This document shows, piece by piece, positions 11,719 through 54,803 of a DNA stretch of 64,000 nt. Source of the stretch: Candidatus Uhrbacteria bacterium CG10_big_fil_rev_8_21_14_0_10_48_11 (GTDB lineage Bacteria; Patescibacteriota; Patescibacteriia; GWA2-46-9); contig PFET01000009.1 of NCBI GenBank assembly GCA_002793855.1, positions 21,749 to 85,748 on the forward strand. The letters are read 5' to 3'. Position numbers and translations under genes: made by a program. Position 1 is the stretch's first letter. Every line of letters starts with the position of its first letter. The notes beneath the pieces were generated by a model. That model was not told the origin of the DNA. It saw only the letters and a list, made by a program, of their open reading frames with translations, and did not search any database.

Positions 11719-11807
11719 GTCTGCTACAGTATAGCACACCAGTTTGAGCTACCAAAAAAACAACGCCTTTTCTGTATACGTTTTGCGAAGGTTGCTATAC
11801 TAATCTT

Positions 11808-21266: not shown

Positions 21267-21818
21267 TTAGTTTGCTAACCGGTCTACGGGAACAATAGTT
21301 ATCGTTTGCGGCTGATTACCATGTGGGTATTTCGCCACAAAAATATCTACGGTCGGGTACTCTCGAACACGGTCAAGCCAATGCGCATAACGGTCTTCGC
21401 ACGCGTACTCCTTCCCGTCTATTTCAATTTTAGTCCCTAAGGCAAGAAAACTCGGACAGGCGACAGCACCAAGGTATACAGGTTTTCCGCTTGCCATCAA
21501 GCACTTCCCATTACGAATATTATGACAGCTATCGGTGTAGCTATACTGCGTCACAATAGCTGTAAACGTCTCAGCGACAATCTCTCTCGTAGGTGTAGCA
21601 ATGCTATTAGTTGATTCGGGAGCGGCTGCAATACCTGCCAATGGACCGTATAGCACTCCGACCGCAAGCACAACAAAAAGAACGCCCTGAGCAACTCTAG
21701 TTGAAGCGCCTCTTAAGGCTTTATTTGTGGTTATAAGGGCCTGTTCGAGGCCAACTACTATAAACCAACGAATAGCATTCGCGACCAGGATGAGGTGTAC
21801 TAATACCATAATAACCAT
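21267..21818 (-). CDS. Membrane-anchored 3D/RlpA-like double-psi beta-barrel domain protein, a putative cell-wall glycan-binding or lytic protein.
   Basis: An N-terminal TM helix is present. The C-terminus reads GKPVYLGAVACPSFLALGTKIEIDGKEYACEDRYAH...TVDIFV, resembling 3D/RlpA DPBB domains. Confidence 0.4.
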   Translation of the reverse strand: MVIMVLVHLILVANAIRWFIVVGLEQALITTNKALRGASTRVAQGVLFVVLAVGVLYGPLAGIAAAPESTNSIATPTREIVAETFTAIVTQYSYTDSCHNIRNGKCLMASGKPVYLGAVACPSFLALGTKIEIDGKEYACEDRYAHWLDRVREYPTVDIFVAKYPHGNQPQTITIVPVDRLAN

Positions 21819-26009: not shown

Positions 26010-26669
26010 CTAAAGAATGTCAAGGGTAAAATTGAATGATTCTGAGCGGTATGGCAACCATGGCCAAAAGGATGGCCAAACTGAAATCTTTACATCGGTA
26101 ATGCCGCGCAGAAGCATCAATTTTTGAACTAATACTATTGGTTTTTTTGCGGCCACCATTTTAGCCATGCTGCCAAAATCATAGACGGGTATTGCCAGCC
26201 CCGAGACGGAAGTATTCATCCGCAAAACGTCACCACTATCTGCTACTGCCTTGGTAACGCGTACCTCTATGCTTGCTTTGTCTAAGACGGTATTGGTGGC
26301 TAACAATCTCTTAAGTTCATCATTCTCAAGATTCAATAAATCGTCCTTTTTAAAGGCAACCCCAGTGGTGAGAAGAGGATCTGAAACCACAAAGTGATCT
26401 TGGGCGTCATCAGTCCTTACCAGAAGGGGGAAAATTTGATCGTTTGGTTGCACCTCTACTTGCTCAGCAGGAATGGTAGCGAGCGCAGGTAGAGAATGGT
26501 CAATACTGGGATCCAAAACTACGTTCATAGTTGTTCTGGCGGGTTCTCCGCTTACGCTCACAGTAACGCTTGCTTTTGGAATAAAAAAAACAAACAATAC
26601 ACAACTAAGCAGTACTATTGAACCTCCAATAAACCACCAAGCAACGCGATGCCAACGCACAAACAACAT
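26010..26669 (-). CDS. Membrane-anchored hypothetical protein.
   Basis: One N-terminal TM helix is followed by about 190 aa with no motif I recognise. Confidence 0.4.
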   Translation of the reverse strand: MLFVRWHRVAWWFIGGSIVLLSCVLFVFFIPKASVTVSVSGEPARTTMNVVLDPSIDHSLPALATIPAEQVEVQPNDQIFPLLVRTDDAQDHFVVSDPLLTTGVAFKKDDLLNLENDELKRLLATNTVLDKASIEVRVTKAVADSGDVLRMNTSVSGLAIPVYDFGSMAKMVAAKKPIVLVQKLMLLRGITDVKISVWPSFWPWLPYRSESFNFTLDIL

Positions 26670-30499: not shown

Positions 30500-30733
30500 C
30501 TAGATTCTATCGGCATATCGCAGCACAGACACAAAAAATACAAGAAAAAAAACAGCAAACACCATTATAAGCGATCGGCCATGATGAATCTTTTGCTCAA
30601 TAGTAAATGCCGCAAAAGTAGCAAATGCGCCCCAGACAATCGATGGTTGCACATTTTTACGCGAAAAAAGCGTGTCTTCTTTTAAATGAATCTTCTCGCT
30701 CTTTTTTGCTACGTAATCAGACTCGTACTTCAT
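30500..30733 (-). CDS. Small 2-TM membrane protein, the last gene of the candidate operon.
   Basis: Its 77 aa include two hydrophobic helices. It starts 2 nt after the ATPase stop. Confidence 0.35.
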   Translation of the reverse strand: MKYESDYVAKKSEKIHLKEDTLFSRKNVQPSIVWGAFATFAAFTIEQKIHHGRSLIMVFAVFFLVFFVSVLRYADRI

Positions 30734-30735
30734 TG

Positions 30736-32550
30736 CTAACTTAACGTAATCGTTTGGCCTGGTTGCACGATACTTCCCTTTGAGGTATTTTGTTCATTTG
30801 TTTCTCTTGCACTTTTCAGATGCTCATCGCCTTGCTTTTTTTCTACAAATGGTTCAGCTTCTTTTTGTTTAACCTCATCGTCACTTTTATTTTCTATTGC
30901 AACTACGTTATTGATCACCAGAGGTATTTTCTCTTTTACGACGGCTGGTTTACTTGCTGGAACCGCACCCTGTCTGCCTTTCGCTCGCTCACTGCGTATG
31001 CGACTGAGGCACTCTTTGCAGTAAACAGGGCGTTTTCCATCTGGCTTAAAAGACAGCTTAGTAGGCTTACCGCACTCATTACAAACCGCATCATAGCTTA
31101 ACACGTTCTTTACTGGTTCGCTGGCTAATAACTGTTTCGCCTCAGACTGAGTTGCCGTCTTTGGCACTGCTGTTTTGTGGCTAGTAACAACTTGCGCACT
31201 TCTAGATCGTTCTGTTCTCGGAGGCGCGGAACTGGCAGCTTTGTGCAAATCTACGGCTTCTTGTTCGAGGGTACTTGCCCAGCGCGAAATCTTGTCTTCG
31301 ATAATTTCTCGCTCTTTTGCGTACCGCTCTCTAGACACACGAATAACTTTTTCACGATTACCGTAATTATTCGCTACCGGCTTAAGCGTATTTGCGGAAA
31401 ATGGCGTTGAGGCAACGCCATCAATCATTAACTTAAGGTAAATCTGCCACTTTGCTAGGTTAACCAAATCTTCTTCAGTGAAATAAGGGCTAAACTCTTT
31501 AACCAACAACTCCGCGTCAGTAGCGCCTACACGAAAGCATACAATCGTACCAACGTTACCAAAAACGGCAGCCTGCACTTCCTCGTCTAACTGTTCGACG
31601 TACTGATGTGCGATAATAAGGTTGAGGCGGTACTTACGGGCCTCTGACAAAATATTTGCAAACGACTCGGTGGCAAAGTTTTGAAATTCGTCGACATAAA
31701 GATAAAAATCTTTTCGCTCTTCTTCTGGCGTATCAATACGACCCATAGCTGCCAATTGAATTTGCGTAATCATCATTGCTCCCAGTAGAGCAGAAGTATC
31801 TTCTCCAATTCTTCCTTTTGATAAATTCAAAATAAGAATTTTTTGATTATCCATGATGTCACGAATATCAATAGAAGACTTTACCTGTCCCACAACATTG
31901 CGAATGAGAGCATTGGACAAAAACTGCCCAACTTTATTCTGAATTGGCGCAATAGCTTCCGCCTGAAAACGATCTGGATACTTTGAATATTCGTCTACCC
32001 AAAAACTTCTCACGACTGGATCCTGAATTTTTTCAATGACGCGTTTACGGTACGCTTTGTCCGTCAAAATGCGCAGTACACCAAGTAATGTTGATCCTGG
32101 ATAATCGAGTAAGGCGAGAATGGCATTCCGAAGCACGTACTCAAGTCGCGGTCCCCAAGAATCTGCCCAAATCTTTTTAAACACACCTACCAGTCCAGAA
32201 GCGATAAGATGCCGCACTTCGGGATTAACAGATTCTAAAATATTAAAAGCGATGGGAAAATTTAAATCTGCGGGGTTGAAATACACCACGTCATTTACCC
32301 TATTTGAAGGTATGAGCGGTAGTGTAGCTTCGGCCAGCTCACCGTGCGGATCAATAACCGCAATGCCGTTACCCGCCATAATGTCTGAATACACCATCTG
32401 CTTCAAAAGTTCAGACTTGCCCATACCGGTTTTACCGATAATGTACATGTGGCGACGCCGATCATCCCGTCGAATACCAAAAAGGCGGCACTTATCTCGG
32501 TAGTTCGTTTCAGCAAAAAAAGTTATATCTTGGTTGTTTGTGTTTAGCAT
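30736..32550 (-). CDS. Soluble P-loop ATPase related to the TraG/VirD4/TraD coupling-protein family. It has no N-terminal TM segment and carries a C-terminal Zn ribbon.
   Basis: Walker A IIGKTGMGKS is followed by VIDPHGEL. Walker B and the family signature read YLYVDEFQNFATES...ARKYRLNLIIAHQYVEQLDEEVQAAVFGNVGTIVCFRVGATDAELLVKEFS (compare the TraG-D_C pattern DEFxNL...Q...QL...N.gt.i.f). The C-terminal zinc ribbon is CNECGKPTKLSFKPDGKRPVYCKEC, followed by a Lys/Glu-rich tail. Confidence 0.6.
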   Translation of the reverse strand: MLNTNNQDITFFAETNYRDKCRLFGIRRDDRRRHMYIIGKTGMGKSELLKQMVYSDIMAGNGIAVIDPHGELAEATLPLIPSNRVNDVVYFNPADLNFPIAFNILESVNPEVRHLIASGLVGVFKKIWADSWGPRLEYVLRNAILALLDYPGSTLLGVLRILTDKAYRKRVIEKIQDPVVRSFWVDEYSKYPDRFQAEAIAPIQNKVGQFLSNALIRNVVGQVKSSIDIRDIMDNQKILILNLSKGRIGEDTSALLGAMMITQIQLAAMGRIDTPEEERKDFYLYVDEFQNFATESFANILSEARKYRLNLIIAHQYVEQLDEEVQAAVFGNVGTIVCFRVGATDAELLVKEFSPYFTEEDLVNLAKWQIYLKLMIDGVASTPFSANTLKPVANNYGNREKVIRVSRERYAKEREIIEDKISRWASTLEQEAVDLHKAASSAPPRTERSRSAQVVTSHKTAVPKTATQSEAKQLLASEPVKNVLSYDAVCNECGKPTKLSFKPDGKRPVYCKECLSRIRSERAKGRQGAVPASKPAVVKEKIPLVINNVVAIENKSDDEVKQKEAEPFVEKKQGDEHLKSARETNEQNTSKGSIVQPGQTITLS

Positions 32551-32556
32551 AACCTT

Positions 32557-33981
32557 CTAAGCTGTCGGTAAATCTGCGGGTGGTTTTGGATTTACCTCTC
32601 CTTCCTGCCGCTTCGTCTCACTGGGGTAATTAGTGCCAATTTCGCTCGCGTAGGGCAAAGTAACTGGTGGGGAGGTGTGCTTAAAGTCCGTCTTTTGAAC
32701 TGCTGCTCTAATGGGGGTCGTTTCAGTCATCATTGGAAAATGCCAAAGTGTGGCCAACTCTTCGATATTCATAACATACGGTTCTCGGCCAAACTCAAAC
32801 TCACGCTCTTTGTATCGATGCATCAGTTTTCTGCGCTTCAAATTTTTTCGCCAATCGGTAAAAAAGTAGTTAGCATGAACGCCGACGTGTTTTGTGTCAG
32901 GCTTAAGAGAATTTAAGTTTTCGGTGTTAAATTGCTTAATGGCGCCAATGAACGCCTCACGTCCATGCTGTACATTAAACCGTTCTTTGGTGGCAATATA
33001 AACAAATCGAATTTTTGTTTCGTAGCCTATCTTTTTGACCTTCATTGACATCGCCTCAATACGATCCCTGTCGTAGGGCGAAAGTAGCAATAACCCGCCA
33101 AGTGAGCCTTTCTCCTGATGCCCCTCTTCGAGTACACCCGAACCACCACCAAATTGATTCGACGCGGACTGCCCAAACTTTTGAATTTCTCCTGCGATGC
33201 TAGACAGTAGCGAGCCCGTCTCCTTTGCGTGACCCATAGTATCCTTAATTTTATGAATCACTTCTTTCTTCCACGAGTTTGTTATAGGCAAAATAATAAT
33301 CTGTAGCCACAGCTGTTCACCCGGACCAAGTTTACCCATTGTTTCTATAACAGCGTTCATCGGGTCTTTCATCTCTTTACTCATTATGTGCTCAAACTCT
33401 ACGTAGGTACGAATAGGTAGCGCCTCATTCTCTACATAAACGACCTCTGTACCGTACATATCATAGCGCTCGTCGGGATACACCGTCGGATACCCCTCCA
33501 CATAATCTTCTACTTCAGTAATTTGAGCGTCTGGATACTGACTATACACCGCCGCTTCCACTAAGTCTCGGAACTTGTCAACCGTTCTAATCAAAAACTG
33601 AACGTATCCTTCAATACTTACAATTTCTAAAGAGAAGGACTCCTGCACGGCACCATACCAATATTTTTCCAGCATTGTTTTTGTGCCATGTGCACCAGCA
33701 AGATGAGCAAAAATATTTTCAACTGCTTTTGGTGATTGCACGTTATCTCGTGGCACATCTATCGCCAGAAGTACCCAATGACACTTTTGTCTTTGGTACT
33801 CTCTCTTAATGTAGCGCATCCAAAAAAACCATCCGAGCCGCACAAAAGCAATAACAAAAATAATCCACCCACCGTGAATCACCAAATAGAAAAAAAGTTC
33901 CCAGCTAGCAATGAGCGGAGAAGCGCCGTATATGGCTGCATGCAGTAACTCAGCAAAACGTGACGGTGTTGCAACGTCCAT
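32557..33981 (-). CDS. Membrane protein with 2 N-terminal TM helices and an uncharacterised soluble domain of about 400 aa.
   Basis: Hydrophobic helices LIASWELFFYLVIHGGWIIFVIAFV and WFFW lie near the N-terminus. The rest has no motif I recognise. It is wedged between the regulator and the ATPase with gaps of 3 nt and 6 nt. Confidence 0.45.
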   Translation of the reverse strand: MDVATPSRFAELLHAAIYGASPLIASWELFFYLVIHGGWIIFVIAFVRLGWFFWMRYIKREYQRQKCHWVLLAIDVPRDNVQSPKAVENIFAHLAGAHGTKTMLEKYWYGAVQESFSLEIVSIEGYVQFLIRTVDKFRDLVEAAVYSQYPDAQITEVEDYVEGYPTVYPDERYDMYGTEVVYVENEALPIRTYVEFEHIMSKEMKDPMNAVIETMGKLGPGEQLWLQIIILPITNSWKKEVIHKIKDTMGHAKETGSLLSSIAGEIQKFGQSASNQFGGGSGVLEEGHQEKGSLGGLLLLSPYDRDRIEAMSMKVKKIGYETKIRFVYIATKERFNVQHGREAFIGAIKQFNTENLNSLKPDTKHVGVHANYFFTDWRKNLKRRKLMHRYKEREFEFGREPYVMNIEELATLWHFPMMTETTPIRAAVQKTDFKHTSPPVTLPYASEIGTNYPSETKRQEGEVNPKPPADLPTA

Positions 33982-33984
33982 AGA

Positions 33985-35199
33985 TTAGGCTTGCTGAACA
34001 AGATGGTAATTACCTTCTTTGTCTTTCGTAAACATTGTAGAATTGAGAAGCGCCAAATGAATTGTCTGTTTCTTTACCATTCGTCGTTCAAGTACGGCGC
34101 GTACTATCTGCTCTCGCTTCATACTGCCCTCTTTTTGAAGCAACTCACGAACAACATCAACTACGGTACCTGGCTGGTATCCCCACTCTCTAAGCGCGTA
34201 AAGCCCACGGCCAACAAGAACAAACCGTTTGTCTAAAATGAGTTCGTTATGAACCGATGGCGCCTTGGCAACTTTCGAATCAAAATGCATCGAATTAATT
34301 TTTTCGGTAATCACATTAAAATGTAAGGGCTTTCCGTGATGCCGAAGAATTAAATAAATTTTATCATTCATTCGTCGCGGATGAATGGTTTGCCAAGAAC
34401 GCATCCCCCACTCTCCAAAAATATTCTGCGCAAGCTCACCAGCTGCTGATAAATAGGCGGTCAGGACGCGATTTTCTTCCTCGGTAGTTGGTGGGTCATT
34501 TGTACCCGGAGAGCCAATAAACTCTCTTGCAATATGTACTGGTTCAGCCACTAGTTGTTGACGGCGCTCAAGGTAAAAAGGTTGTTGCCGAAAGCGTTGT
34601 AGAAGATCGCCACGCTCTATCGGGTATCCTACCGTTTTTATTGCTTCCACAAACGATTCTACTGCTCCCTTTAGTAATGCTGTATCAACGCCAGTTAAAA
34701 CATAAATTGGGCGAAGACAAACATCGTCTTCCCGGTATTCAACAAAACCATCAAGTAAATGGTCGAGCAAAAAATGTAGGCAGGCTTTTGTCGAAGCTTC
34801 ATGTTTTTCGTCACCGATCCTTCCTTGCGAGTAATCCAGGAGCTGATCTATAAAAAAAACTGCCTCTAACGCGCCTCCGTAACTACGCAACAGGTATTCT
34901 GTTGTTCTGATGAACAACTTTAGCTCCTCGTTCTTTGCGGAGAGCGCCCGCAATTTGTCTACAGAAGATTTAGCAATTTGACGGATACGTTCTCTGGTAA
35001 CCGATAACTGATCTCCAATCTCTTCCAGCGTTTCTGTTTGACCCCCTTCTGGAATTGCAAATCTGCGACGAACAACATCGGCCTCGCGGTCCGCTAGGGT
35101 GCTAAGCAGATGATTCACTACCGCGACAGGGTCAAACGTACGTATTTCTTCTGCGTGTCGCTGGGCAATTAATTTATCTAAAATACTATACTCTGACAT
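33985..35199 (-). CDS. Putative DNA-binding or transcription protein. It has an N-terminal sigma-70 region-4 helix-turn-helix and a C-terminal HARE-HTH-like winged helix.
   Basis: Residues about 35-85 read LADREADVVRRRFAIPEGGQTETLEEIGDQLSVTRERIRQIAKSSVDKLR, matching sigma-70 region 4.2. Residues about 290-360 read IYLILRHHGKPLHFNVITEKI........ILDKRFVLVGRGLYALREWGY, matching the HARE-HTH pattern of RpoE/delta (Pm.f.ei...DgRF..lg.g.WgLr.W). Confidence 0.55.
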   Translation of the reverse strand: MSEYSILDKLIAQRHAEEIRTFDPVAVVNHLLSTLADREADVVRRRFAIPEGGQTETLEEIGDQLSVTRERIRQIAKSSVDKLRALSAKNEELKLFIRTTEYLLRSYGGALEAVFFIDQLLDYSQGRIGDEKHEASTKACLHFLLDHLLDGFVEYREDDVCLRPIYVLTGVDTALLKGAVESFVEAIKTVGYPIERGDLLQRFRQQPFYLERRQQLVAEPVHIAREFIGSPGTNDPPTTEEENRVLTAYLSAAGELAQNIFGEWGMRSWQTIHPRRMNDKIYLILRHHGKPLHFNVITEKINSMHFDSKVAKAPSVHNELILDKRFVLVGRGLYALREWGYQPGTVVDVVRELLQKEGSMKREQIVRAVLERRMVKKQTIHLALLNSTMFTKDKEGNYHLVQQA

Positions 35200-35266
35200 G
35201 ATTTTATGGGCTAATACAAAAGATCAAAAATACTATCTTATTTTATGTGCTATTTTAAATTTCCGA

Positions 35267-35302
35267 TAAAATTATAATAGCATAAAACGAATAATCTGTC
35301 AA
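35267..35302 (-). promoter_or_regulatory. Near-consensus sigma-70-type promoter for the operon beginning at 35199.
   Basis: The minus strand reads TTGACA (35302-35297), then a 17-nt spacer, then TATTAT (35279-35274). That is about 70 nt upstream of the ATG. Confidence 0.45.
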
Positions 35303-35354: not shown

Positions 35355-36305
35355 TTAGTAACGTGCGATTCGTCGCTTTTCTTTCCAGCTATACCAGCTA
35401 ATCAAAAGTGGCGAAGCTATAAAAATTGAACTGTAGGTACCAACGAAAATACCAATGGTAAGTGCTAGTACGAAATAGTGAATACTTTCTCCACCAAAGA
35501 CCAAAGTAAAAATAAGCACGAGCAATGTCGTAAACGAAGTGTTTATCGATCGACCCATTGTTTCGTTTAAGCTCCGGTTTACAACTCGGGAAAAAGAATC
35601 AGTGGCGCGATGCAAGTTCTCTCTAATACGATCAAATACAACAATGGTATCGTGAACCGAAAATCCAAGTAAGGTCAGTAGTGCAGTAATGAAAAGCACG
35701 TTTACTTCAACACCAAGGTAGTGTCCAAGAATAGAAAAAATACCAACCGTAATAATGGTGTCGTGAAAGAGAGCGATAATGGCCGCCGTTCCAAACTGCC
35801 ATGAGGGTACCGGACGAGAAACCTTTCTGAACGCCCAAGCGATATACAGAATGATTGCCCCCAAAACAGCACTCAATGCAAAAATTGATTTTTGTCGTAG
35901 CTCAGCTCCAATAGTAGGACCGATGGCGGTAAAACGCTCTTCGCTAATACTATCCCCTTTCTCTCCGCCAAATGTTTTCTCTAATGCTGCGAGTAAGGTC
36001 GCGTGATCCTCTTCGCTTAACGCCTTACCTTCTTTGGCGCCTATTCGCAGAGTTGCCCCATTGGTACCAATGGGAGTAATGTCTACGGTTCCAATAGTTT
36101 CTAGTACCGCCGCTGAAATGTCCGCTATCGCTGGACGATTACCAGCAAAGGTAATTTCCATTAACGATCCCCCAGTAAAATCAATACCGTATTTGAGTCC
36201 CCACCCTGGAAGTAAAATAGCCAGCGCGCACAGTAGCACCAAGGTACCCGAAAAGAGGTAGGCAATTCTGCGATAACCAACAATATTTATATTTGTACGT
36301 CTCAT
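35355..36305 (-). CDS. secF: Protein-export membrane protein SecF.
   Basis: It has six TM helices with a SecF periplasmic loop and a 4-nt overlap with secD. Confidence 0.85.
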   Translation of the reverse strand: MRRTNINIVGYRRIAYLFSGTLVLLCALAILLPGWGLKYGIDFTGGSLMEITFAGNRPAIADISAAVLETIGTVDITPIGTNGATLRIGAKEGKALSEEDHATLLAALEKTFGGEKGDSISEERFTAIGPTIGAELRQKSIFALSAVLGAIILYIAWAFRKVSRPVPSWQFGTAAIIALFHDTIITVGIFSILGHYLGVEVNVLFITALLTLLGFSVHDTIVVFDRIRENLHRATDSFSRVVNRSLNETMGRSINTSFTTLLVLIFTLVFGGESIHYFVLALTIGIFVGTYSSIFIASPLLISWYSWKEKRRIARY

Positions 36306-38110
36306 ACTTCGGTCGAATTATTTTTTCGCGCCACGCCATAAAGCCACAGTCGTTTACTTGTACCGTTAGCCACCACAAGCCTTAAGAATGTACGAGTAAC
36401 GATAATCGCGCTAAACATACTTACCAAAATACCAAGAGCGAGCGTCAACGCAAACCCACGAACAACGCTGGTTCCAAACCAGTAAAGAATCGTACAGGTA
36501 AGAAGCGAGGATACATTTGAATCGCGAATGGACGTCCAAGCACGCTGGAAACCAACTTCGATAGCTGATTGTAGCGGCCTTGCCTCAGCAAGCTCTTCCC
36601 TAAGGCGTTCAAAAATAAGCACGTTGGCGTCCACTGCCATACCAATAGAGAGAATAAACCCAGTTACTCCTGCAAGCGTCAACGTTACTGGCCAAAACTT
36701 GAAAAGCGCTAGGGCAATGCTGGCGTACACCAGCAAAGCAAACACCGACAAAAGACCCGGCAAGCGATAGTAAAGAATCATAAACAGTGCAACTAGAAGA
36801 AACCCGATAAACGCCGCTTCTAAACTCTGCTGAACTGCAACGGCGCCAAGCTTAGCCCCGATGGTTTGCTGCGAAACAAGTGCGATTGGTACTGGCAATG
36901 CACCGGCATTCAAACGCTGTGCTAACAGTTTTGCCTCGTCAATAGTGAAGCTTCCAGTAATAACCGCCTCGCCACCAACAATTGCCTGTTGGACTGTTGG
37001 GACACTAATCGGCTGACCATCAAGGAAAATACCAACCGGTTTACCAATATCACGCTGCGTAATTTCTTCAAAAAGTTTCGATCCTTCTGCGTTAAAGCGT
37101 AGCTGCACCTGCGGCTGGTTTGTCTGCTGGGCAAAAACGACCGTTGCTTTATCAAGCTGCTTACCTGATAACTGAGTGTTCTTCCAGCCAGCGTTTGGGT
37201 CATTTGGCAAAAAATCTCGGGCCGACGGAGCACTGATAAGAATATGACGAGCGTGAACCTCTTGAACCCCGTCGCTGTTGGTTCTCTCGTCAAGACGTTG
37301 TATCACATGATGCCCATAAGCGGTTTTGATAGGCGTTTGGGTAATCTGATTTTCTTTGAGTTGGTTAAAGAGTGCGTCACCGAATTCTGCCACAACGCTG
37401 GCTTTCGTGATGTAGTCAAGGTCACCGCCATTGTCTTTCGAGCCGGGATCATCAGAAAGCTCTTTCGCAATTTTTGCAAAATCTTCTCCGGCATTGAGGC
37501 GCTTAATAACCGATTCGGCTTTACGCTTGGCAGCCGCCTGTCCGTCATCAATCTGTTTTTGCTGGGCTGGCGTAATGGTCGGAGCTACCGCATTTTCATC
37601 CTGCTCTTTAAATTCTAGCAATGGCGTCTCACCGATCTGCTTAATGGCATCATCCACGTTCTCTACACCCGCAAGTTCAACCAATACGCGCCACTGGTTC
37701 CCAGAGCGTTCTGTTTGTACCACTGGCTCAGCAACACCAAAGGCGTTCACGCGCCGCTCAATGACGTCACGGACGCCCTCAAGCGCTGAGACCTTATCAC
37801 TGTCAGGAATTTTACTGGTATCCGCGTCATAAAGTAACTGCGTCCCGCCAACAAGATCAAGGCCGAGTCGAAACGGCGTATCGACAAAGTACGGAACGCC
37901 AGCCTTCAATACTCCCCCAACCCAACCCAAACCAGTCGGATACTGCTTAGCACCGAGTTCTGCTAATTTTGGATTTACCGCATCTACCGCCTTATTGTAA
38001 TAAACAGGATAGTTATAAAGTCCCGCAACAATAGTAAGCACGATGATTGCCACGAAGGTCCACCGAACTCGTCCTCGGCGGGTGCGGAAGGTAACGCGTA
38101 CGCCCATCAA
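36302..38110 (-). CDS. secD: Protein-export membrane protein SecD carrying a parvulin-like insertion in the periplasmic P1 region.
   Basis: The SecD N-terminal TM and P1 base (LGLDLVGG) are present, as are the head subdomain (IFLDGQPISVPTVQQAIVGGEAVITGSFTIDEAKLLAQRLNAGALP) and the C-terminal six TM helices. Residues about 175-300 are alignable to parvulin PPIase (see finding). Confidence 0.85.
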   Translation of the reverse strand: MMGVRVTFRTRRGRVRWTFVAIIVLTIVAGLYNYPVYYNKAVDAVNPKLAELGAKQYPTGLGWVGGVLKAGVPYFVDTPFRLGLDLVGGTQLLYDADTSKIPDSDKVSALEGVRDVIERRVNAFGVAEPVVQTERSGNQWRVLVELAGVENVDDAIKQIGETPLLEFKEQDENAVAPTITPAQQKQIDDGQAAAKRKAESVIKRLNAGEDFAKIAKELSDDPGSKDNGGDLDYITKASVVAEFGDALFNQLKENQITQTPIKTAYGHHVIQRLDERTNSDGVQEVHARHILISAPSARDFLPNDPNAGWKNTQLSGKQLDKATVVFAQQTNQPQVQLRFNAEGSKLFEEITQRDIGKPVGIFLDGQPISVPTVQQAIVGGEAVITGSFTIDEAKLLAQRLNAGALPVPIALVSQQTIGAKLGAVAVQQSLEAAFIGFLLVALFMILYYRLPGLLSVFALLVYASIALALFKFWPVTLTLAGVTGFILSIGMAVDANVLIFERLREELAEARPLQSAIEVGFQRAWTSIRDSNVSSLLTCTILYWFGTSVVRGFALTLALGILVSMFSAIIVTRTFLRLVVANGTSKRLWLYGVARKNNSTEV

Positions 38111-49287: not shown

Positions 49288-49323
49288 CACTTGGCAGTTT
49301 TTCTTCCGTACTGTCAAAAAAAA

Positions 49324-49332
49324 TGGTATAGT
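49324..49332 (+). promoter_or_regulatory. Extended -10 element (TGgTATAGT) ending 6 nt before the pilB ATG. This suggests a leaderless pilB transcript.
   Basis: TGGTATAGT lies at 49324-49332 and the ATG at 49339. No Shine-Dalgarno sequence is visible. Confidence 0.3.
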
Positions 49333-49338
49333 AAAACT

Positions 49339-51090
49339 ATGTTTACCGACAAACAGCTGGTAAAAATTATTGATTCCAGTGGCATTTTTTCTGCTCCAGA
49401 TATTAAAAAGTACCAAGGCGAAGCAGACGCTAAAAGACAACCGTTGGAAAATTTCCTACTCGGTAAGCGCCTAATTTCTGAAGATAGCCTTTACGAAAAT
49501 GCTGCCGGCGTATACAGTGTTCCCTTTATAAAACTTAGAGGTAAGCCAATTAGAAAGGACGTTCTCTTCTTGGTACCAGAACCACTTGCCAAACACTACC
49601 AAATCATTGCCTACGATACCGAAGGTGACGATACCATCAAAGTAGTAAGCACTGACCCTGAAAATTTGCAGGCCGTTGAGTTTTTACGCAAAAAAACGGC
49701 CAAAAAGATAGAGCTCTCTTTGACCACTCCTGACGAGTGGCAAGAGCTAATGAAGCAGTACCACAAAAGTCTCCAGGCTGAGTTTAGTGAGCTATCAGCA
49801 AAACCAGGGAAAAAATCTACCACCAAGGCTGGCTCGAAGAAGATTGATAAGGACCTAAAAGAACTTGCCGAAGATCTTCCCGTTATTGGGGTTGTCGATA
49901 CGATTCTGGAGTACGCCATATTTGAAGGCGCGTCGGACATTCACATTGAGCCCACTGAAAAAGATCTTAACGTCCGCTATCGAATTGATGGTGTCTTGAA
50001 GAATGTCATGAACCTTCCCAAAACAATCCAACCCGGCGTGACTGCTCGTATCAAGGTACTCTCTACGCTGAAGCTAGACGAACATCGCCTCCCACAGGAT
50101 GGTCGTTTTAAGATTGAAACGGAAGAATACAGAGTTGCGTTTCGTGTTTCTGTTTTGCCAACATTTGATGGGGAAAAAATTGTATTGCGTCTTCTCGATG
50201 AAGGTAGCCAAATACTGACTCTCGCTCAGCTCGGACTACAACCCAAAGAGCTTGATCTGCTACAGATAAACATAACGAAGCCGCACGGTATGATTCTGGT
50301 TACCGGCCCTACAGGTTCCGGAAAGACGACGACACTCTACACAGTTCTTAACGTGCTGAACAAACCAGAGGTTAACATTTCTACCGTAGAAGATCCCATC
50401 GAGTACCGTATGCAGGGCATTAACCAAAGTCAGGTAAACCCAAAAATAGGTTATACCTTCGCTATGGGCCTACGTGCGTTACTGCGTCAAGACCCAAACA
50501 TTATCATGGTTGGAGAAATTCGAGATTTAGAAACTGCTGAAATCGCCGTCAATGCCGCAATGACCGGTCACCTTCTCCTTTCTACACTGCACACCAATGA
50601 CGCCGTCACGGCAATACCTCGCTTGTTTGATATGGGCATCCCGCCATTCTTGGTGGCCTCCACTACAAATATGGTCATGGCGCAACGATTGGTCCGTCGC
50701 ATCTGTAGCCTCTGCATTTCAAGTTATACGCTAGACAAGGCAGCACTAGATGAACTTAAAAAACAATTCGATCTAGGAGCGATTCTCAATGCATTGGTTC
50801 GTCATGGCAGTGTCGCGAAAAAAACAAAATCTTTTGGTGATCTACTTTTTTACCGAGGTAAAGGTTGTAAACAGTGCGGTGATGACGGCTATCGCGGCCG
50901 CGTTGGCGTCTATGAAATATTAAATATCAGCAAAGAAGTAAATGATGCTATTCTACGAAAAGCGAGCCGTGAAGAGCTCGTAGAGCTTGCCAGAAAACAA
51001 GGAATGACAACTCTCCTTGAGGACGGCTTCCTTAAGGCAAAGGCTGGTATAACCACCATAGAAGAGGTGCTCAGGGTAACCCAAGAATAG
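49339..51090 (+). CDS. pilB: Type IV pilus assembly ATPase (GspE/PilB family).
   Basis: It has a T2SSE N-terminal domain, a GPTGSGKTTT Walker A, Asp and His boxes, and a tetracysteine motif (CSLC...CKQCG). The ORF-track alternative start is the TTG at 49291. Confidence 0.85.
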   Translation: MFTDKQLVKIIDSSGIFSAPDIKKYQGEADAKRQPLENFLLGKRLISEDSLYENAAGVYSVPFIKLRGKPIRKDVLFLVPEPLAKHYQIIAYDTEGDDTIKVVSTDPENLQAVEFLRKKTAKKIELSLTTPDEWQELMKQYHKSLQAEFSELSAKPGKKSTTKAGSKKIDKDLKELAEDLPVIGVVDTILEYAIFEGASDIHIEPTEKDLNVRYRIDGVLKNVMNLPKTIQPGVTARIKVLSTLKLDEHRLPQDGRFKIETEEYRVAFRVSVLPTFDGEKIVLRLLDEGSQILTLAQLGLQPKELDLLQINITKPHGMILVTGPTGSGKTTTLYTVLNVLNKPEVNISTVEDPIEYRMQGINQSQVNPKIGYTFAMGLRALLRQDPNIIMVGEIRDLETAEIAVNAAMTGHLLLSTLHTNDAVTAIPRLFDMGIPPFLVASTTNMVMAQRLVRRICSLCISSYTLDKAALDELKKQFDLGAILNALVRHGSVAKKTKSFGDLLFYRGKGCKQCGDDGYRGRVGVYEILNISKEVNDAILRKASREELVELARKQGMTTLLEDGFLKAKAGITTIEEVLRVTQE

Positions 51091-51091
51091 T

Positions 51092-52213
51092 ATGGCAATA
51101 ACCTACGTAGACGAAAAAACCAACGAGGTTGCTGCGACCCCTGCAACGGAAAAACGATCCCGAAAAATGCCATGGGAAAGCTTGAGCACCAAGCAGGTAC
51201 TATTTTTGACACAACAGTTGCAAATTATGATGCATGCCGGTGTCCCACTAACAAAGACACTTGAAACGTTAAAAGCACAAGCAACTACAAAGTACCTACG
51301 GACACTACTTGAAAGAATAGAGGCTGACGTCGAGCAAGGGAAATCGTTGGCCGATGCCTTGCGTCCTTACGAAAAAGATTTCGGAGAGCTCATGATTAAT
51401 ATGATTGCTGCCGGTGAAGCCAGTGGTCGACTCGACGAAGTACTCGAGCAGCTCTATCTCCAAATGAAAAAAGATAATGAAATTGTTTCGCGCGTGCGTG
51501 GTGCCCTCATTTATCCAGCAATCGTAGTAGCCGCAATGTTTGGTATTGGTACTTTTATGATTGTCTTTGTTGTACCGAAACTTATTGGACTTTTTCAAGA
51601 AGTAAAAGTATCGCTTCCTTTACCGACTCGTATCCTTATTGCCATGAGCGATTTTTTTACCCACCATGGCTTCATCGCGGCCACTTCAATTACAGCTTTT
51701 ATTTTATTGTTTGCGTGGACCATTAGACAACCTTGGGGTAAAAAAGTATGGCACACCATACTACTCCACTCCCCTGTCATAGGAGCAATTATTAAAAAGG
51801 TAAATGTGGCACGTTTCGCAAGGACAGTTAGTTCTTTTTTAAAAACAGATATCCCTGTCGTAAAAACATTAGAAACAACGGCGCACGTCTTGGGAAATGT
51901 TCACTATCAAAATGCTCTTATTGATGCCTCTCAAAAAATAACTAAAGGCATTACCTTGGGAGAAGCACTGCGGCCACATAAAAATCTTTTTAACCCAACT
52001 ATTTTGCAAATGATCTCTGTTGGTGAGCAGGCCGGTAAGCTTGATGATATGCTTGCTGAGGCGGCAAATTTTTACGAAGCAGAAGTGAACCAAACCATGG
52101 AAACGCTTCCTTCGTTGCTCGAACCGATTTTGATGATTTTACTTGGTTTTGGTGTAGGTGGTATGGCGGTAGCCATTATTCTACCTCTGTACACGTTGAC
52201 ACAGGCATTTTAG
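51092..52213 (+). CDS. pilC: Type IV pilus inner-membrane platform protein (GspF/PilC family).
   Basis: Two T2SSF repeats and three TM helices. It abuts pilB. Confidence 0.85.
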   Translation: MAITYVDEKTNEVAATPATEKRSRKMPWESLSTKQVLFLTQQLQIMMHAGVPLTKTLETLKAQATTKYLRTLLERIEADVEQGKSLADALRPYEKDFGELMINMIAAGEASGRLDEVLEQLYLQMKKDNEIVSRVRGALIYPAIVVAAMFGIGTFMIVFVVPKLIGLFQEVKVSLPLPTRILIAMSDFFTHHGFIAATSITAFILLFAWTIRQPWGKKVWHTILLHSPVIGAIIKKVNVARFARTVSSFLKTDIPVVKTLETTAHVLGNVHYQNALIDASQKITKGITLGEALRPHKNLFNPTILQMISVGEQAGKLDDMLAEAANFYEAEVNQTMETLPSLLEPILMILLGFGVGGMAVAIILPLYTLTQAF

Positions 52214-52217
52214 CTAT

Positions 52218-53285
52218 ATGGATTTTTCATTTTCTCTACGAAGCCCAAGACCTCCCTCTGCTTTCGGTCTTGATCTTTCAGACGATACTCTAAAAATTGC
52301 CCAGCTACGTTACCACGGTAAAAAAATTACCGTCGACGTACTAATAGAGAAACGGCTACCCGCAAAAGCAATTGTAGACGGTGAAATAAAAAATATTGAT
52401 GCAGTAAGCGAGGCACTAGCTACTGTTTATGGTGAGCAACGACATAAGCTTATTTCTAGTGCCATTATCGCCCTTCCTGAGGCGCAAACCTTTATTACCA
52501 CTATTACGGTTCCCAAAAAGGGCAATACTGCCTTAAAGCAACTGTTGCAAGAAGCCCTGCCGGAATATCTACCCGACAGTGTTGATAAACTTTATATTGA
52601 CACGCAGACTTTGTCCGAGAACGACACGAGCTGGATTGTACTTGTTGGCGCAGCACCACAAATTTTAGTTGAACCATACTTAGCTATTGCGGAACGTGCT
52701 GGCGTGTCGCCTCTCGTTCTTGATATTGAGCCAATTGCAACGGCAAATGCACTTATCCCCCACGCAGAAACGACGCCCAAAACAAGAGCAATAATAAACC
52801 TAGGACAACGCCGAGGAAATCTTATCCTGCACAGCTCCGGTTCTGTTCTTTTCACTGCTAGCCTCCCTATTTCAGGGGAAGCTGTTACCGAAGAATTAAA
52901 GGAACAACTTAAAATCACGAAAGAGCAAGCAGAAAAAACAAAGCGCTTATGCGGGTTAGACCCTAAAAAATGTGAGGGCGTGCTTCGGCAGGTGCTTGAA
53001 CGCATGGTTCAACAGCTGCTTGAACGCATCGGAGAGAACCAAAAATACTACCGAGACCACTTTGCTGCAGCAACCAAAATTGAGGAAATTATTCTTGCGG
53101 GTGGTGGCGCGCACCTCATCGGGCTTGATACAGTGCTCTCGGATGCCTTGGGTATTCCTGTACGATTAGGTACACTATGGGAAAATGTATCAGTTGAGAC
53201 ACCTCCGGAACTTGAATCAGAGCTTCGCTATGCAACAGTAGTTGGACTAGCAGAAAGAGCTCTCAACGACGAAGCAACGCTATGA
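52218..53285 (+). CDS. pilM: Type IV pilus assembly protein PilM (actin-like ATPase fold).
   Basis: FtsA/PilM-like sequence in its operon position. Confidence 0.8.
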   Translation: MDFSFSLRSPRPPSAFGLDLSDDTLKIAQLRYHGKKITVDVLIEKRLPAKAIVDGEIKNIDAVSEALATVYGEQRHKLISSAIIALPEAQTFITTITVPKKGNTALKQLLQEALPEYLPDSVDKLYIDTQTLSENDTSWIVLVGAAPQILVEPYLAIAERAGVSPLVLDIEPIATANALIPHAETTPKTRAIINLGQRRGNLILHSSGSVLFTASLPISGEAVTEELKEQLKITKEQAEKTKRLCGLDPKKCEGVLRQVLERMVQQLLERIGENQKYYRDHFAAATKIEEIILAGGGAHLIGLDTVLSDALGIPVRLGTLWENVSVETPPELESELRYATVVGLAERALNDEATL

Positions 53286-54393: not shown

Positions 54394-54744
54394 ATGAAAT
54401 TACCAATAAATTACATTATTAAATACAGTAGAGTTGCTATCGGTATGGCTATGATGGCAATATTTGCCGGCGTCGTTTGGTTCCTTTACCAAAATGTCTA
54501 CCAGCCACTAACGCAAGCGACTTTTCTTGCAGAGCTTGAGTCGCGTGTTGCCCTCGTTGGAGTCAATAAGAATGACCTAAAAGAAGTGTTAGAGACCATA
54601 AAAACAAACGCTCACCCTCCCGAGATTGACTGGACACAAACGAGAAATCCCTTTATTGAAGGGCAAATTCTAAATACCGATACTTCCTCGCAGTTAGGAG
54701 GAACAACACTACCAACCGAGGCACCTCTGCCTAAGCAGCCTTGA
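54394..54744 (+). CDS. Small bitopic membrane protein in the PilP position.
   Basis: One TM helix and a Thr/Pro-rich C-terminus. The start is taken at MKLPINY. Confidence 0.35.
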   Translation: MKLPINYIIKYSRVAIGMAMMAIFAGVVWFLYQNVYQPLTQATFLAELESRVALVGVNKNDLKEVLETIKTNAHPPEIDWTQTRNPFIEGQILNTDTSSQLGGTTLPTEAPLPKQP

Positions 54745-54803
54745 CCGAAAAACATAATATTGCTATAGTCATCGCTACGTAATTCATTTACCCTTAGTCC
54801 TGT

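Follow-up and report, generated by a model that had tools for sequence, protein, structure and literature searches.

A putative split coupling-protein-like ATPase encoded with a DNA-binding partner in Patescibacteria

Introduction

The coupling proteins (T4CPs) of T4SSs, such as TrwB of R388, VirD4, TraD, and DotL, are ATPases whose core carries Walker A and B motifs and an inserted all-alpha DNA-binding domain. TrwB has a two-helix membrane anchor, and in R388 a small gene lies directly upstream of the coupling-protein gene; its product is TrwA, a DNA-binding accessory protein. FtsK/SpoIIIE and Streptomyces TraB belong to the same P-loop superfamily; they are anchored in the membrane by their N-terminus, work as ring motors, and recognise DNA through winged-helix modules (the gamma domain in FtsK).

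In the Patescibacteria/pGO1-type T4SS, a VirB4-N-terminal-like protein, TrsD, is encoded immediately upstream of its ATPase, VirB4 (PMC12102498). The same study found 5,713 VirD4-like T4CP homologues spread over 2,918 of the 3,035 Patescibacteria genomes it covered (96%), only 148 of them near virB4, and suggested exaptation; partner proteins and architecture are not described there (PMC12102498). The ATPase family considered here, flagged as T4CP-like in the initial annotation of this DNA, had thus not gone unnoticed.

Results

Organisation of the locus

The stretch of DNA analysed (the window, 64,000 nucleotides) comes from the chromosome of a Candidatus Uhrbacteria member (class ABY1) of the ultra-small Patescibacteria, also called CPR. 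Four minus-strand ORFs, g1-g2-g3-g4, follow one another with spacers of 3, 6, and 2 nt, as first annotated and as the ORF coordinates confirm (Table 1). Approximately 75 nt 5' of the g1 start codon is a sigma-70-type promoter. The TTGACA-17-TATTAT match reported there is real, but its ranking as the best in the window is shared: a whole-window scan found it to be joint best with a second 11/12 match at 59956(-), which is antisense within a coding region, leaving the operon promoter as the only intergenic 11/12 site. No minus-strand terminator-like site was found within the operon or between g4 and mnmA, so the transcript may extend past g4. The GC content of the operon (0.43-0.44) is the same as that of the window. 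A domain scan of the operon and 50 other window ORFs (92-926 aa, all chosen ORFs of at least 110 aa among them) revealed no VirB4, VirB6, or relaxase domain, bearing out the earlier reading that the window holds no T4SS or relaxase locus; the window likewise lacks an integrase, relaxase, or repeat signature. No described system has the g1-g4 combination, in keeping with the earlier reading.

Table 1. Coordinates of the features of the locus within the window.
Feature	Position	Strand	Remarks
Promoter, sigma-70-type	35274..35302	-	TTGACA-17-TATTAT with TGn extended -10; 11/12 match
g1, 404 aa	33985..35199	-	Sigma-70 region 4, then string of winged-helix domains including HARE-HTH
g1 sigma-70 region 4 HTH	34945..35109	-	Residues 31-85; Sigma70_r4 E 2.6e-14
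g1 HARE-HTH winged helix	34183..34362	-	Residues 280-339; PF05066 E 1e-10
g2, 474 aa	32557..33981	-	DUF8128 protein; predicted membrane anchor and N-terminal half of split ATPase
g2 hydrophobic hairpin	33811..33927	-	N-terminal, residues ~19-57; predicted 2 TM (hydropathy, AF2)
g2 junction motif	32734..32769	-	NIEELATLWHFP, residues 405-416; invariant columns, alignment A1
g3, 604 aa	30736..32550	-	Predicted TM-less TrwB/VirD4-type ATPase (Pfam and NCBIfam profiles)
g3 Walker A	32413..32436	-	GKTGMGKS, residues 39-46; aligned to TrwB Walker A
g3 Walker B	31687..31704	-	YLYVDE, residues 283-288, then FQNF; aligned to TrwB LFIDEL
g3 zinc ribbon	31000..31095	-	CxxC-x17-CxxC, treble-clef, residues 486-517; profile matches
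g4, 77 aa	30500..30733	-	One strong TM segment; lineage-specific

The ATPase and its membrane half

g3 matches the Pfam families TrwB_AAD_bind, DUF87, and TraG-D_C, and its ATPase core aligns to TrwB residues 119-393. A phmmer search of the PDB returned TrwB (E 2.8e-9) and DotL (E 1.8e-6) and only these two, VirB4/TrwK not being matched. Comparison of the fused family (described below) by hhalign gave a probability of 97.3% against TrwB (E 2e-11, 267 columns) and of 3.6% against TrwK. On this sequence evidence, g3 is an ATPase of the TrwB/VirD4 (T4CP) type, unlike the VirB4-type ATPase TrwK of R388. The Pfam FtsK_SpoIIIE model aligns only at Walker A and without significance (E 0.085). The C-terminus comprises a zinc ribbon (PF23477, zf_Tbcl_2, E 1.5e-13; TIGR04272, E 3.4e-13), which is extra relative to T4CPs such as TrwB, and a K/E-rich tail. 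Among the best 150 cluster representatives, the CxxC…CxxC motif occurs in 12 of 80 stand-alone ATPases and in none of 70 fused ones. Hydropathy analysis of g3 detected no hydrophobic segment and agrees, as do the profiles, with the annotated TM-less T4CP-like ATPase ending in a zinc ribbon. Like TrwB, g3 would need a two-helix membrane anchor; unlike in T4CPs, the anchor is on a separate polypeptide, though the two are fused in relatives.

That anchor is the N-terminal hairpin of g2, which the AF2 model resolves into helices 22-36 and 38-66 and which has a conserved HGGW turn. A basic stretch follows, and the large g2 domain is therefore predicted to lie in the cytoplasm. What had been called a large unknown domain belongs to a recognised Pfam family: an identical database protein is annotated with PF26449 (DUF8128), which was not matched in the local Pfam copy. 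g2 matches neither TrsD-type nor VirB4-type profiles, and hhalign against a single TrwK sequence found no DUF8128 similarity at the sequence level. In a Foldseek search with the predicted structure of g2, by contrast, the top eight matches were all TrwK chains, while the T7SS protein EccE scored far more weakly than VirB4. The large domain has a VirB4-like fold in this model, which was built from 20 sequences and on which the resemblance rests, and it may correspond to the VirB4 N-terminal domain specifically. Canonical T4CPs have no such domain of approximately 350 residues after their anchor.

Fusions and a shared motif show that g2 and g3 are two halves of one protein, the functional core of the operon. 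DUF8128 is fused to the N-terminus of the ATPase in 70 of the best 150 ATPase cluster representatives (E down to 1e-113). At one locus, L006, a fused paralogue aligns with g2 residues 311-425 (E 5e-6) and then with g3 residues 12-421 (42% identity, E 2e-119) in one polypeptide. The motif NIEELATLWHFP near the end of g2 recurs in this paralogue and in fused cluster representatives, in which it lies approximately 70 residues ahead of Walker A. Where the two are split, the ATPase is encoded directly 3' of DUF8128 in 46 of 74 loci. The annotation's suggestion that the upstream 2-TM protein supplies the membrane part of the ATPase is thus borne out by widespread gene fusions.

TrsD-VirB4 and DUF8128-g3 follow the same logic of an N-terminal domain supplied in trans. 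DUF8128 is nevertheless a different family by sequence (a TrsD homologue matches PF11130; PMC12102498 Table S3), and whereas TrsD partners a true VirB4 inside T4SS loci, DUF8128 partners a T4CP-type ATPase outside them. A further relative is gp156 of the giant Bacillus phage G (phrog_5156), in which a DUF8128-like N-terminal domain (HMM E 3.7e-16) is fused to a T4CP-like ATPase with 30% identity to g3. The single phrog_5156 profile runs collinearly over both proteins, with g2 at 76-311 and g3 at 407-818. Unlike g2/g3, gp156 has no TM hairpin, g1-like partner, or zinc ribbon.

The neighbouring genes g1 and g4

The assignment of a sigma-70 region 4 and a HARE-HTH module to g1 is upheld by profile matches (Table 1). 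Its region 4 is 31-37% identical to that of primary sigma factors, and its match to the RNAP delta model TIGR04567, at 41.0 bits, falls just below the cutoff of 42. g1 lies directly upstream of the module in 27 of 75 split loci and in all three fused loci, each of the latter in a different neighbourhood; across both forms the genes are separated by 2-30 nt or overlap by 4 nt. All three g1 homologues that were looked up are located at a DUF8128/ATPase module. This conserved linkage makes g1 a genuine partner of g2/g3, as its placement with the ATPase had implied. In other lineages its position is taken by a 2-TM protein of approximately 53 aa or is empty.

The standing of g4 is different. Profile searches returned no family for g4; neighbourhood comparison, in which g2-g3 adjacency and g1 linkage recur, did not find it 3' of g3 in other loci, apart from a weak positional counterpart in one (L007, E 0.004). 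It falls outside the conserved small 2-TM family, and of the two TM segments first ascribed to it, one is strong (49-77) and the other marginal (30-46). Whether g4 belongs to the module is doubtful, and it would be a lineage-specific add-on, if a gene. The four-gene operon is therefore not a conserved unit: g4 is lineage-specific, g1 is replaced or absent elsewhere, and even DUF8128 and the ATPase are neighbours in only 46 of the 74 split loci.

Genomic setting

DUF8128 is carried by at least 586 species-representative genomes, and the gene order secA-secD-secF-module-mnmA-alaS-ribosomal genes is conserved. The module lies directly 3' of secD-secF in 36 of 75 loci and in seven more with g1 between, secA often being upstream. 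Searches of plasmid, phage, and viral-contig collections found no g2 homologue. Across 87 loci, no T4SS component occurs among the screened genes or Pfam-annotated neighbours. The module is a core-genome chromosomal feature of Patescibacteria and not a mobile element. In being chromosomal, core, and vertically conserved without linked relaxase or mating-pair-formation genes it differs from T4CPs, and in having no VirB6, VirB8, or VirB2 gene nearby it differs from VirB4/VirB3 systems. A distant relative outside the CPR, P0473, is encoded in an integrase-bearing element with a Replic_Relax gene directly 3' and with neither VirB4 nor VirB6 encoded within 9 kb.

Discussion

The module is most likely a membrane-anchored DNA-handling motor, acting alone or serving the CPR T4SS as a coupling protein encoded apart from it. 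We tentatively favour a self-contained split coupling-protein motor that has g1 as its adaptor and needs no full T4SS, and judge the chances of this version to be somewhat short of even. g2 provides the TM hairpin and the cytoplasmic VirB4-like domain, and g3 the TrwB/VirD4-type P-loop motor, the all-alpha domain, and, in this lineage, the zinc ribbon. Judging from TrwB, VirB4, and FtsK, the two proteins should form a ring ATPase anchored in the membrane, probably hexameric. g1, encoded directly upstream as the small gene is in R388, may act as a DNA-binding adaptor in a role like that of the TrwA/TraM-type accessory proteins of conjugative coupling proteins, supplying the motor with DNA or with DNA bound to protein. 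The motor would then spend ATP moving or remodelling its substrate on the cytoplasmic side of the membrane. The TrwB DNA-binding all-alpha profile, the zinc ribbon, the DNA-binding folds of g1, and the setting of P0473 together suggest that this substrate is DNA, although the module has neither a relaxase nor a channel protein linked to it. Independence from a T4SS is suggested by data from incomplete MAGs and by one Tn-seq statement on a Saccharibacterium T4CP homologue that may differ in architecture. On this view, a conjugative coupling protein would have given rise in Patescibacteria to a vertically inherited, chromosomally fixed module.

A somewhat less probable alternative is that the module is the coupling protein 'missing' from the Patescibacteria T4SS, whose VirB4/TrsD/VirB3/VirB6/VirB2-like genes are encoded elsewhere, with DUF8128 docking the ATPase on the inner-membrane complex and g1 recruiting a DNA or protein substrate. 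In its favour, the ATPase belongs to the T4CP type, no recognisable coupling protein is encoded in Patescibacteria T4SS loci (PMC10633639, PMC12102498), and the 148 homologues near virB4 show that proximity does occur (PMC12102498). VirB3 wraps round the VirB4 N-terminal domain in the R388 machine (PMC9259494), and the pairing of CPR VirB4 with a separate upstream TrsD parallels that of DUF8128 with its ATPase. Phage G gp156 directly follows gp153 (TrbL/VirB6-like) and gp155 (VirB4-like ATPase), as would suit a conventional coupling protein working with a T4SS. Against this, the T4CP family is found in 96% of genomes and VirB4 in 80%, one Uhrbacteria genome scored VirB4-negative retains its T4CP, relaxases number only 109 in the 3,035 genomes and do not accompany the module, and the T4CP homologue of S. 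epibionticum is non-essential while its T4SS is essential (PMC12102498). The 87 loci without a T4SS component among the screened genes or annotated neighbours also count against it, as does ATPase identity of 55-75% across classes, a degree of conservation unusual in a T4SS accessory component. The dispensable homologue could still be squared with a coupling role if the T4SS were essential only for its pilus. A VirB4-like N-terminal domain could also serve to dock VirB3/VirB6-type partners, which would speak against a self-contained motor.

Because g1 joins a sigma region 4 to an RNAP-delta-like module, it could be an RNA-polymerase-associated transcription factor that merely regulates, or is co-transcribed with, g2/g3. 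The many DUF8128 loci with a small 2-TM gene or nothing in place of g1 are compatible with this; its close upstream linkage in split and fused forms and in unrelated neighbourhoods exceeds that usual for a local regulator, and with every homologue looked up lying at the module, we regard mere regulation as improbable.

Many T4CPs export proteins, and the module often directly follows secD-secF. g2/g3 might accordingly be a Sec-associated or T7SS-like protein-translocation ATPase, with DUF8128 resembling EccE and the ATPase EccC/FtsK. In fused loci, however, the SecDF linkage is gone while that to g1 is retained, so the proximity to SecDF seems to reflect preserved gene order and not function. 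The partner that is conserved, g1, is a DNA-binding protein, and both the zinc ribbon and the TrwB DNA-binding-domain profile indicate nucleic acid. The ATPase is of T4CP and not EccC type, no other T7SS (ESX) component occurs among the annotated neighbours, and non-CPR relatives lie beside relaxase-family or T4SS genes. Together these points make protein translocation quite improbable.

It is hardly credible that the genes serve in anti-phage defence or are left over from a mobile element such as an ICE, plasmid, or prophage. T4CPs are typically on mobile elements, P0473 lies in an integrase-bearing one, and one PHROG family spans g2 and g3; among defence models, g3 matches PADLOC mad8 (E 1.4e-17) and HerA, while g1 matches MzaA over region 4 only. 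These defence matches, however, are limited to generic ATPase or HTH cores. Many lineages keep the module at its chromosomal position among sec, mur, tRNA-modification, and ribosomal genes, orthologues occur in at least 586 species, GC is normal, the window shows no integrase, relaxase, or repeat signature, and the plasmid, phage, and viral-contig collections yielded no g2 homologue.

For the favoured DNA-handling motor, candidate physiological roles are DNA uptake, DNA export, or chromosome handling. Unlike FtsK, the module has no gamma domain, for which g1 may be the counterpart. According to the literature, ftsK is also present in Saccharibacteria at least, so the module is not a simple FtsK replacement.

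Gene organisation and genomic context

The operon contains four open reading frames on the minus strand, at the coordinates originally assigned to them and with the same spacers of 3, 6, and 2 nt (see table). g1 encodes a protein with sigma region 4 and HARE-HTH domains, g2 a DUF8128 protein (PF26449), g3 a type IV coupling protein (T4CP)-like ATPase, and g4 a small protein. The promoter that the initial annotation ranked as the best in the window is present, but a whole-window scan placed it level with one other 11/12 promoter-like site, which lies antisense within a coding region. No terminator-like sites were found within the operon or from g4 to mnmA, so the transcript may run beyond g4.

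The window has the gene content of an ordinary chromosome. Along the minus strand run ftsW-murG-murC-murB-hpf-secA-nudix-secD-secF-[g1-g2-g3-g4]-mnmA, after which come a pseudouridine synthase gene on the plus strand, alaS, a 219-aa gene, and rpsM-rpsK-rpsD-rpoA-rplQ-rplM-rpsI. Farther off lie genes for ClpB, PriA, and glycosyltransferases, together with a type IV pilus cluster (pilB/pilC/pilM/pilN, 49.3-53.8 kb). A Pfam scan of the operon and 50 other open reading frames (92-926 aa, including every chosen frame of at least 110 aa) found no VirB4, VirB6, or relaxase domains, and no RNA elements were detected in the window with Rfam.

Coordinates of the features discussed in the text
Feature	Sequence	Position	Strand	Remarks
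g1	window	33985-35199	minus	404 aa
g2	window	32557-33981	minus	474 aa
g3	window	30736-32550	minus	604 aa
g4	window	30500-30733	minus	77 aa
Promoter TTGACA-17-TATTAT with TGn extended -10	window	35302..35274	minus	11/12 match (whole-window scan)
secD	window	36302-38110	minus	Rotamase insertion
Type IV pilus cluster	window	49291-54386	plus	14 kb from module
Pfam-less frame	window	10984-11739	minus	
Pfam-less frame	window	21267-21818	minus	
Pfam-less frame	window	26010-26669	minus	
Pfam-less frame	window	53805-54386	plus	
Pfam-less frame	window	54612-55193	minus	
Region of common gene order	window	21958-46772		
Region of common gene order	L004	541-21509		
Fused paralogue	L006	1-1674	plus	
Second paralogue	L025	16058-17395	minus	
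Second paralogue	L065	15938-17299	minus	
Thymidine-kinase-like gene	L013	11091-11720		
Thymidine-kinase-like gene	L015	11178-11843		
Small 2-TM gene	L003	9849-9998		further genes at about 25 other loci
Small 2-TM gene	L018	7775-7936		
Small 2-TM gene	L020	5830-5991		
Small 2-TM gene	L026	7795-7956		
Small 2-TM gene	L015	7710-7877		
Phage G T4SS-like set gp153-gp156	L095 (NC_023719.1)	774-6338		gp156 annotated 'MsbA-like'
P0473 locus	L092	9001-13444		
P0472 and upstream paralogues	L091	3574-9221		

Distribution and synteny

Uhrbacteria are placed in the GTDB class ABY1 of the Patescibacteria, or CPR (PMC12102498 Table S1). Patescibacterial homologues of g1, g2, and g3 number in the thousands each, and DUF8128 occurs in at least 586 species in a scan of one genome per species. 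The 80 best DUF8128 loci carry either Patescibacteria-group labels or uninformative ones ('bacterium', 'uncultured Gammaproteobacteria bacterium'); their common synteny and an identity to g2 of 38-58% lead us to count all of them as Patescibacteria. In these loci, which are the closest relatives of g2 and towards which the counts are biased, an ATPase gene lies immediately 3' of DUF8128 in 46 of 74 evaluable cases, g1 immediately upstream in 27 of 75, and secF immediately upstream in 36 of 75, with g1 intervening in seven more.

A very long common gene order links the window to L004 and L088, loci of distant Patescibacteria: murC-murB-hpf-secA-…-secD-secF-[module]-mnmA-alaS-(unknown)-[infA in L004]-rpsM-rpsK-rpsD-rpoA-rplQ-rplM-rpsI, where the module is g2 and g3, usually with g1. 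The module sits inside this conserved housekeeping block. Relaxase, VirB4, and VirB6 were not found among the screened and Pfam-annotated genes of related CPR loci. A mobile-element origin is rejected, since searches of IMG/VR contigs, PLSDB plasmids, and INPHARED phages detected no homologue of g2, and we conclude that the module is chromosomal and vertically conserved. A link to cell division was likewise dismissed as too weak, dcw genes lying within 8 kb in only 14 of 87 loci.

The g3 ATPase

g3 matches the TrwB_AAD_bind, DUF87, and TraG-D_C models, exceeding the cutoffs of both PF10412 and PF12696, and carries a CxxC-x17-CxxC treble-clef finger (residues 486-517). Its Walker A (GKTGMGKS, G39-S46) and Walker B (YLYVDE, Y283-E288, followed by FQNF) motifs are intact. 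When the all-alpha domain was tested for, g3 matched the TrwB_AAD_bind profile at positions 13-310 of 387. An hhalign comparison of TrwB with the fused family, in which DUF8128 and the ATPase form one polypeptide, gave an alignment over TrwB 119-393 (Prob 97.3%, E 2e-11, 267 columns) that is unbroken at the all-alpha insertion between Walker A and Walker B. TrwB (2.8e-9) and DotL (1.8e-6) are the solved structures closest to g3 in a phmmer search of the PDB; VirB4/TrwK, though in the PDB, was unmatched. Against TrwK, the VirB4 of R388, the same fused family reached only Prob 3.6%, confined to Walker A, and NCBIfam VirB4-like models covered only short P-loop-region stretches of g3, far under cutoff. 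Judged by sequence, the ATPase half is clearly of the T4CP type.

The ATPase had been described as T4CP-like with no transmembrane (TM) anchor of its own, which the TrwB alignment and a hydropathy profile devoid of hydrophobic segments both uphold; the hairpin is instead on g2, or N-terminal in fused relatives. Of the best 150 cluster representatives, 12 of the 80 stand-alone ATPases carry the CxxC…CxxC motif, against none of the 70 fused ones. g3 is unusually conserved, at 55-75% identity across genomes labelled Uhr-, Buchanan-, and Parcubacteria.

Against FtsK_SpoIIIE (PF01580), g3 gave E 0.085 over 23 residues, and the gamma domain is absent. A simple replacement of FtsK by the module is unlikely, as ftsK is found in Saccharibacteria according to the literature. 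The HerA/DUF87 profile PF01935 scored 38 bits, past its cutoff, but this profile overlaps T4CPs; NCBIfam HerA equivalogs reached 13-14 bits against cutoffs of 800-970, and NurA was not found nearby.

g2 and g3 are two halves of one ATPase

A hydrophobic hairpin (about residues 19-57) occupies the N-terminus of g2, and since a basic stretch comes next, the large domain should be cytoplasmic. PF26449 is annotated on P0001, the identical database protein, and on most of its listed homologues, and the C-terminal region carries NIEELATLWHFP…PPxNLP. An AlphaFold model of g2 (pTM 0.71, core pLDDT 80-94, disordered at 251-295 and 420-474) returned only TrwK chains as its top eight Foldseek matches (E down to 5.9e-5, prob 1.0), with EccE3 next. 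From these matches, for which the Foldseek output gives no aligned residue ranges, we infer that the predicted fold corresponds to the VirB4 N-terminal domain (TrwK residues 15-400), a region wrapped by VirB3 with two TM helices (PMC9259494). Neither the DUF8128 alignment nor the fused-protein alignment gave any hhalign signal against the single TrwK sequence, and a PDB profile search with the DUF8128 alignment found no matches; the link to VirB4 is thus one of predicted fold, not of sequence homology.

A paralogue in a related Uhrbacterium, L006, is a single polypeptide in which g2 residues 311-425 (E 5e-6), including the NxEELAxLxHFP…TP motif, are followed by g3 residues 12-421 (42% identity, E 2e-119). 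An exhaustive search with g3 recovered 24,417 cluster representatives at E ≤ 1e-3, of which 7,009 reach E ≤ 1e-30; among the best 150, an N-terminal DUF8128 domain is present in 70 (E 1e-113 to 5e-7). This domain exceeds 300 profile positions in 57 of the 70, and Walker A follows about 70 residues past the junction motif. Several fused forms are 59-62% identical to g3, as near as the stand-alone orthologues, so that fusion and fission must have occurred among close relatives. Both genes also fall within one profile of 824 positions, phrog_5156, g2 at 76-311 and g3 at 407-818. We conclude that a T4CP-type ATPase equipped with a membrane hairpin and a VirB4-like N-terminal fold is divided between g2 and g3; ABY1-type lineages have it split, other lineages fused. 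The fusions bear out the suggestion in the initial annotation that the upstream 2-TM protein is the membrane part of the ATPase. The layout is very probably a VirB3-like hairpin, a VirB4-like N-terminal domain, and a VirD4-like motor, and is valid whether the motor works alone or serves a type IV secretion system (T4SS). We found no description of this combination, and no mention of DUF8128, in the literature.

The L006 paralogue shares a contig with the split g1-g2-g3 cluster, from which it lies about 6 kb upstream; it lacks the zinc ribbon and is followed by a gene for a 241-aa protein and by dnaX. Second paralogues alongside a split module in the same genome also occur at L025 and L065 (42-45% identity to g3).

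g1 and the small proteins

g1 contains Sigma70_r4 at residues 31-85 (E 2.6e-14) and HARE-HTH at 280-339 (E 1e-10), the combination first reported for it, and the rest of its AF2 model consists of winged helices. Sigma regions 2 and 3 are absent in Pfam and NCBIfam searches, only region 4 matching. The RNA polymerase delta model (RpoE, TIGR04567) scored 41.0 against a cutoff of 42 on an internal domain (276-339), and an acidic C-terminal tail of the RpoE type is not in the g1 sequence.

The order secD-secF-g1-DUF8128-ATPase was found at all three loci reached by way of g1 homologues (labelled Nomura-, Kerfeld-, and Buchananbacteria). The three fused loci inspected (L090, L093, and L094) each have a 358-376-aa Sigma70_r4(±HARE-HTH) gene directly upstream, one with a 4-nt overlap, in three different neighbourhoods that all lack secDF. 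No other evidence speaks as strongly for g1 working with the ATPase as this linkage, kept despite fusion and relocation, and we conclude that g1 is its conserved partner. A functional link to SecDF was rejected: adjacency is frequent, but it is lost in fused loci while g1 stays, which suggests conserved gene order.

g4, annotated at first as a 2-TM protein, has one strong hydrophobic segment, but the second is marginal. It has no family match in Pfam or NCBIfam, its single counterpart is a weak one in a related Uhrbacterium (L007, E 0.004), and the genes 3' of g3 differ between loci. The proposed four-gene module is real, conserved, and undescribed, but comprises two to three genes, g4 being unconserved.

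Loci without g1 instead encode a conserved two-TM protein of about 53 aa (…GY.SG..GWWW…), with the consensus MSDxFIRHLI…GYxSGxxGWWWT…Y…YKL and a second variant MEDKVWRxIYSF…, whose gene ends 1-15 nt ahead of DUF8128. An HMM of this family found it at 33 loci, always just before DUF8128 and never with g1, so that the two genes are mutually exclusive upstream of DUF8128 in the loci examined. This protein could be a VirB3-like partner. It is absent from the window, and the idea that g4 is a relocated copy was rejected because the HMM misses g4 along with the rest of the window. Pfam gave nothing significant for this protein, for gp154 of Bacillus phage G, or for several window proteins.

Relatives outside the Patescibacteria

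In Bacillus phage G, gp156 (825 aa) fuses a TM-less DUF8128-like domain (HMM E 3.7e-16) to a T4CP-like ATPase with 30% identity to g3. Its gene lies directly 3' of gp153 (TrbL_4, VirB6-like), gp154 (125 aa), and gp155 (P-loop_TraG/AAA_10, VirB4-like). P0473 (1,227 aa), from a high-GC, non-CPR source, has at its N-terminus a weak DUF8128-like domain, after which come two T4CP-like ATPase domains in tandem; an integrase/excisionase-like pair lies on one side and a Replic_Relax gene directly downstream, and VirB4 and VirB6 were not found within 9 kb. It may be a single-protein DNA-transfer element. Outside CPR, the architecture occurs in DNA-transfer contexts, and in phage G it takes the place of the coupling protein in a minimal T4SS-like set.

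ATPases similar to that of phage G are found in the Bacillus/Geobacillus phages JL, CP-51, Shanette, D6E, and TP-84. At L091, two paralogous genes (568 and 556 aa, 45% identical), one with a weak C-terminal CxxC-x17-CxxC-type finger, lie ahead of the gene for P0472 (755 aa), a TM-less fused DUF8128-ATPase, with overlaps of 4 nt. This set may represent another sub-module within the superfamily.

Possible function of the module

The initial annotation could not assign the gene combination to a described system, and the module is undescribed, but its ATPase family was already in the literature: a 2025 survey found VirD4-like T4CP homologues in 96% of its Patescibacteria genomes (2,918 of 3,035), 5,713 in all, of which just 148 lie near virB4, and VirB4 in 2,417 genomes (80%) (PMC12102498). 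About two T4CP homologues per genome is consistent with one split or fused orthologue plus a fused paralogue. The survey adds that exaptation of these homologues 'cannot be ruled out'.

By analogy with TrwB, VirB4, and FtsK, g2 and g3 would form a hexameric ring at the membrane. The substrate is presumably DNA or nucleoprotein, given the TrwB DNA-binding-domain profile, the zinc ribbon, the DNA-binding folds of g1, and the DNA-transfer contexts of the relatives, with g1 as a putative adaptor akin to TrwA/TraM. A parallel for an N-terminal domain supplied in trans is found in CPR T4SS loci, where TrsD, which resembles the VirB4 N-terminus and can match PF11130, is encoded directly upstream of VirB4 (PMC12102498 Table S3).

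The motor may work alone, without a T4SS, a reading to which we give somewhat less than an even chance. The family is wider spread than VirB4, and VirB4-negative genomes keep a T4CP, among them a Uhrbacteria genome (PMC12102498 Table S3). In S. epibionticum the T4CP homologue is non-essential and the T4SS essential (PMC12102498). The module has its own membrane anchor and putative adaptor and strong sequence conservation, and the P0473 element pairs a relaxase-family gene with no VirB4 or VirB6 in its vicinity.

That the motor instead serves a distant T4SS as its coupling protein is in our judgement a little less likely. This is the canonical role of the T4CP family, and it would fit the phage G gene order, with the VirB4-like domain as a possible docking module. 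CPR T4SS loci have no other coupling protein, and the S. epibionticum T4SS lacks recognisable coupling or relaxase proteins (PMC10633639). A defence system was rejected: PADLOC returned generic ATPase-core matches (mad8, HerA) and MzaA over region 4, leaving g2 and g4 unmatched.

Returning to a motor that works alone, we suggest, quite tentatively, that the module and its multi-winged-helix partner form a stand-alone, T4SS-independent membrane DNA translocase, a near-universal core component of Patescibacteria that kept an ancestral 'VirB4-type N-terminal domain + VirD4-type motor'. It could, for example, be the motor that drives DNA uptake and nucleotide scavenging at the cytoplasmic membrane, or one that handles the chromosome in these ultra-small cells. 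If true, this would link both ATPase families of type IV secretion.

[quoted passage not shown] Here an orphan VirD4-like family gains an anatomy: a DUF8128 membrane/VirB4-like half, a T4CP-type motor half, and a dedicated DNA-binding partner. DUF8128 receives a structural role, and the membrane anchoring of a TM-less coupling protein is explained. The module may supply the coupling protein that the essential Patescibacteria T4SS is missing, or it may be a new DNA motor that works autonomously; it also suggests an evolutionary intermediate of VirB4 and VirD4. The question becomes testable in genetically tractable Saccharibacteria.

Other observations

A thymidine-kinase-like gene (MSLTVITGPMFSGKSTEL…), called by eye, starts 2-4 nt past the ATPase gene in L013 and L015; as a hint of nucleotide salvage it is possible but unsupported. 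Pfam matched nothing at E ≤ 0.1 in five window frames of 183-251 aa. The position of the 219-aa frame after alaS is held by a 561-562-aa gene in L004 and L005. The pilus cluster encodes a PilB-like T2SSE ATPase with MshEN, PilC/T2SSF, PilM, and PilN, then a 193-aa protein. In the window secD, a parvulin-type peptidyl-prolyl isomerase (Rotamase/Rotamase_3) is inserted between SecD_1st and the P1 head; the same insertion is found in SecD of L001, L003, L004, and L087-L089, and in every Patescibacteria SecD with Pfam annotation that was inspected.
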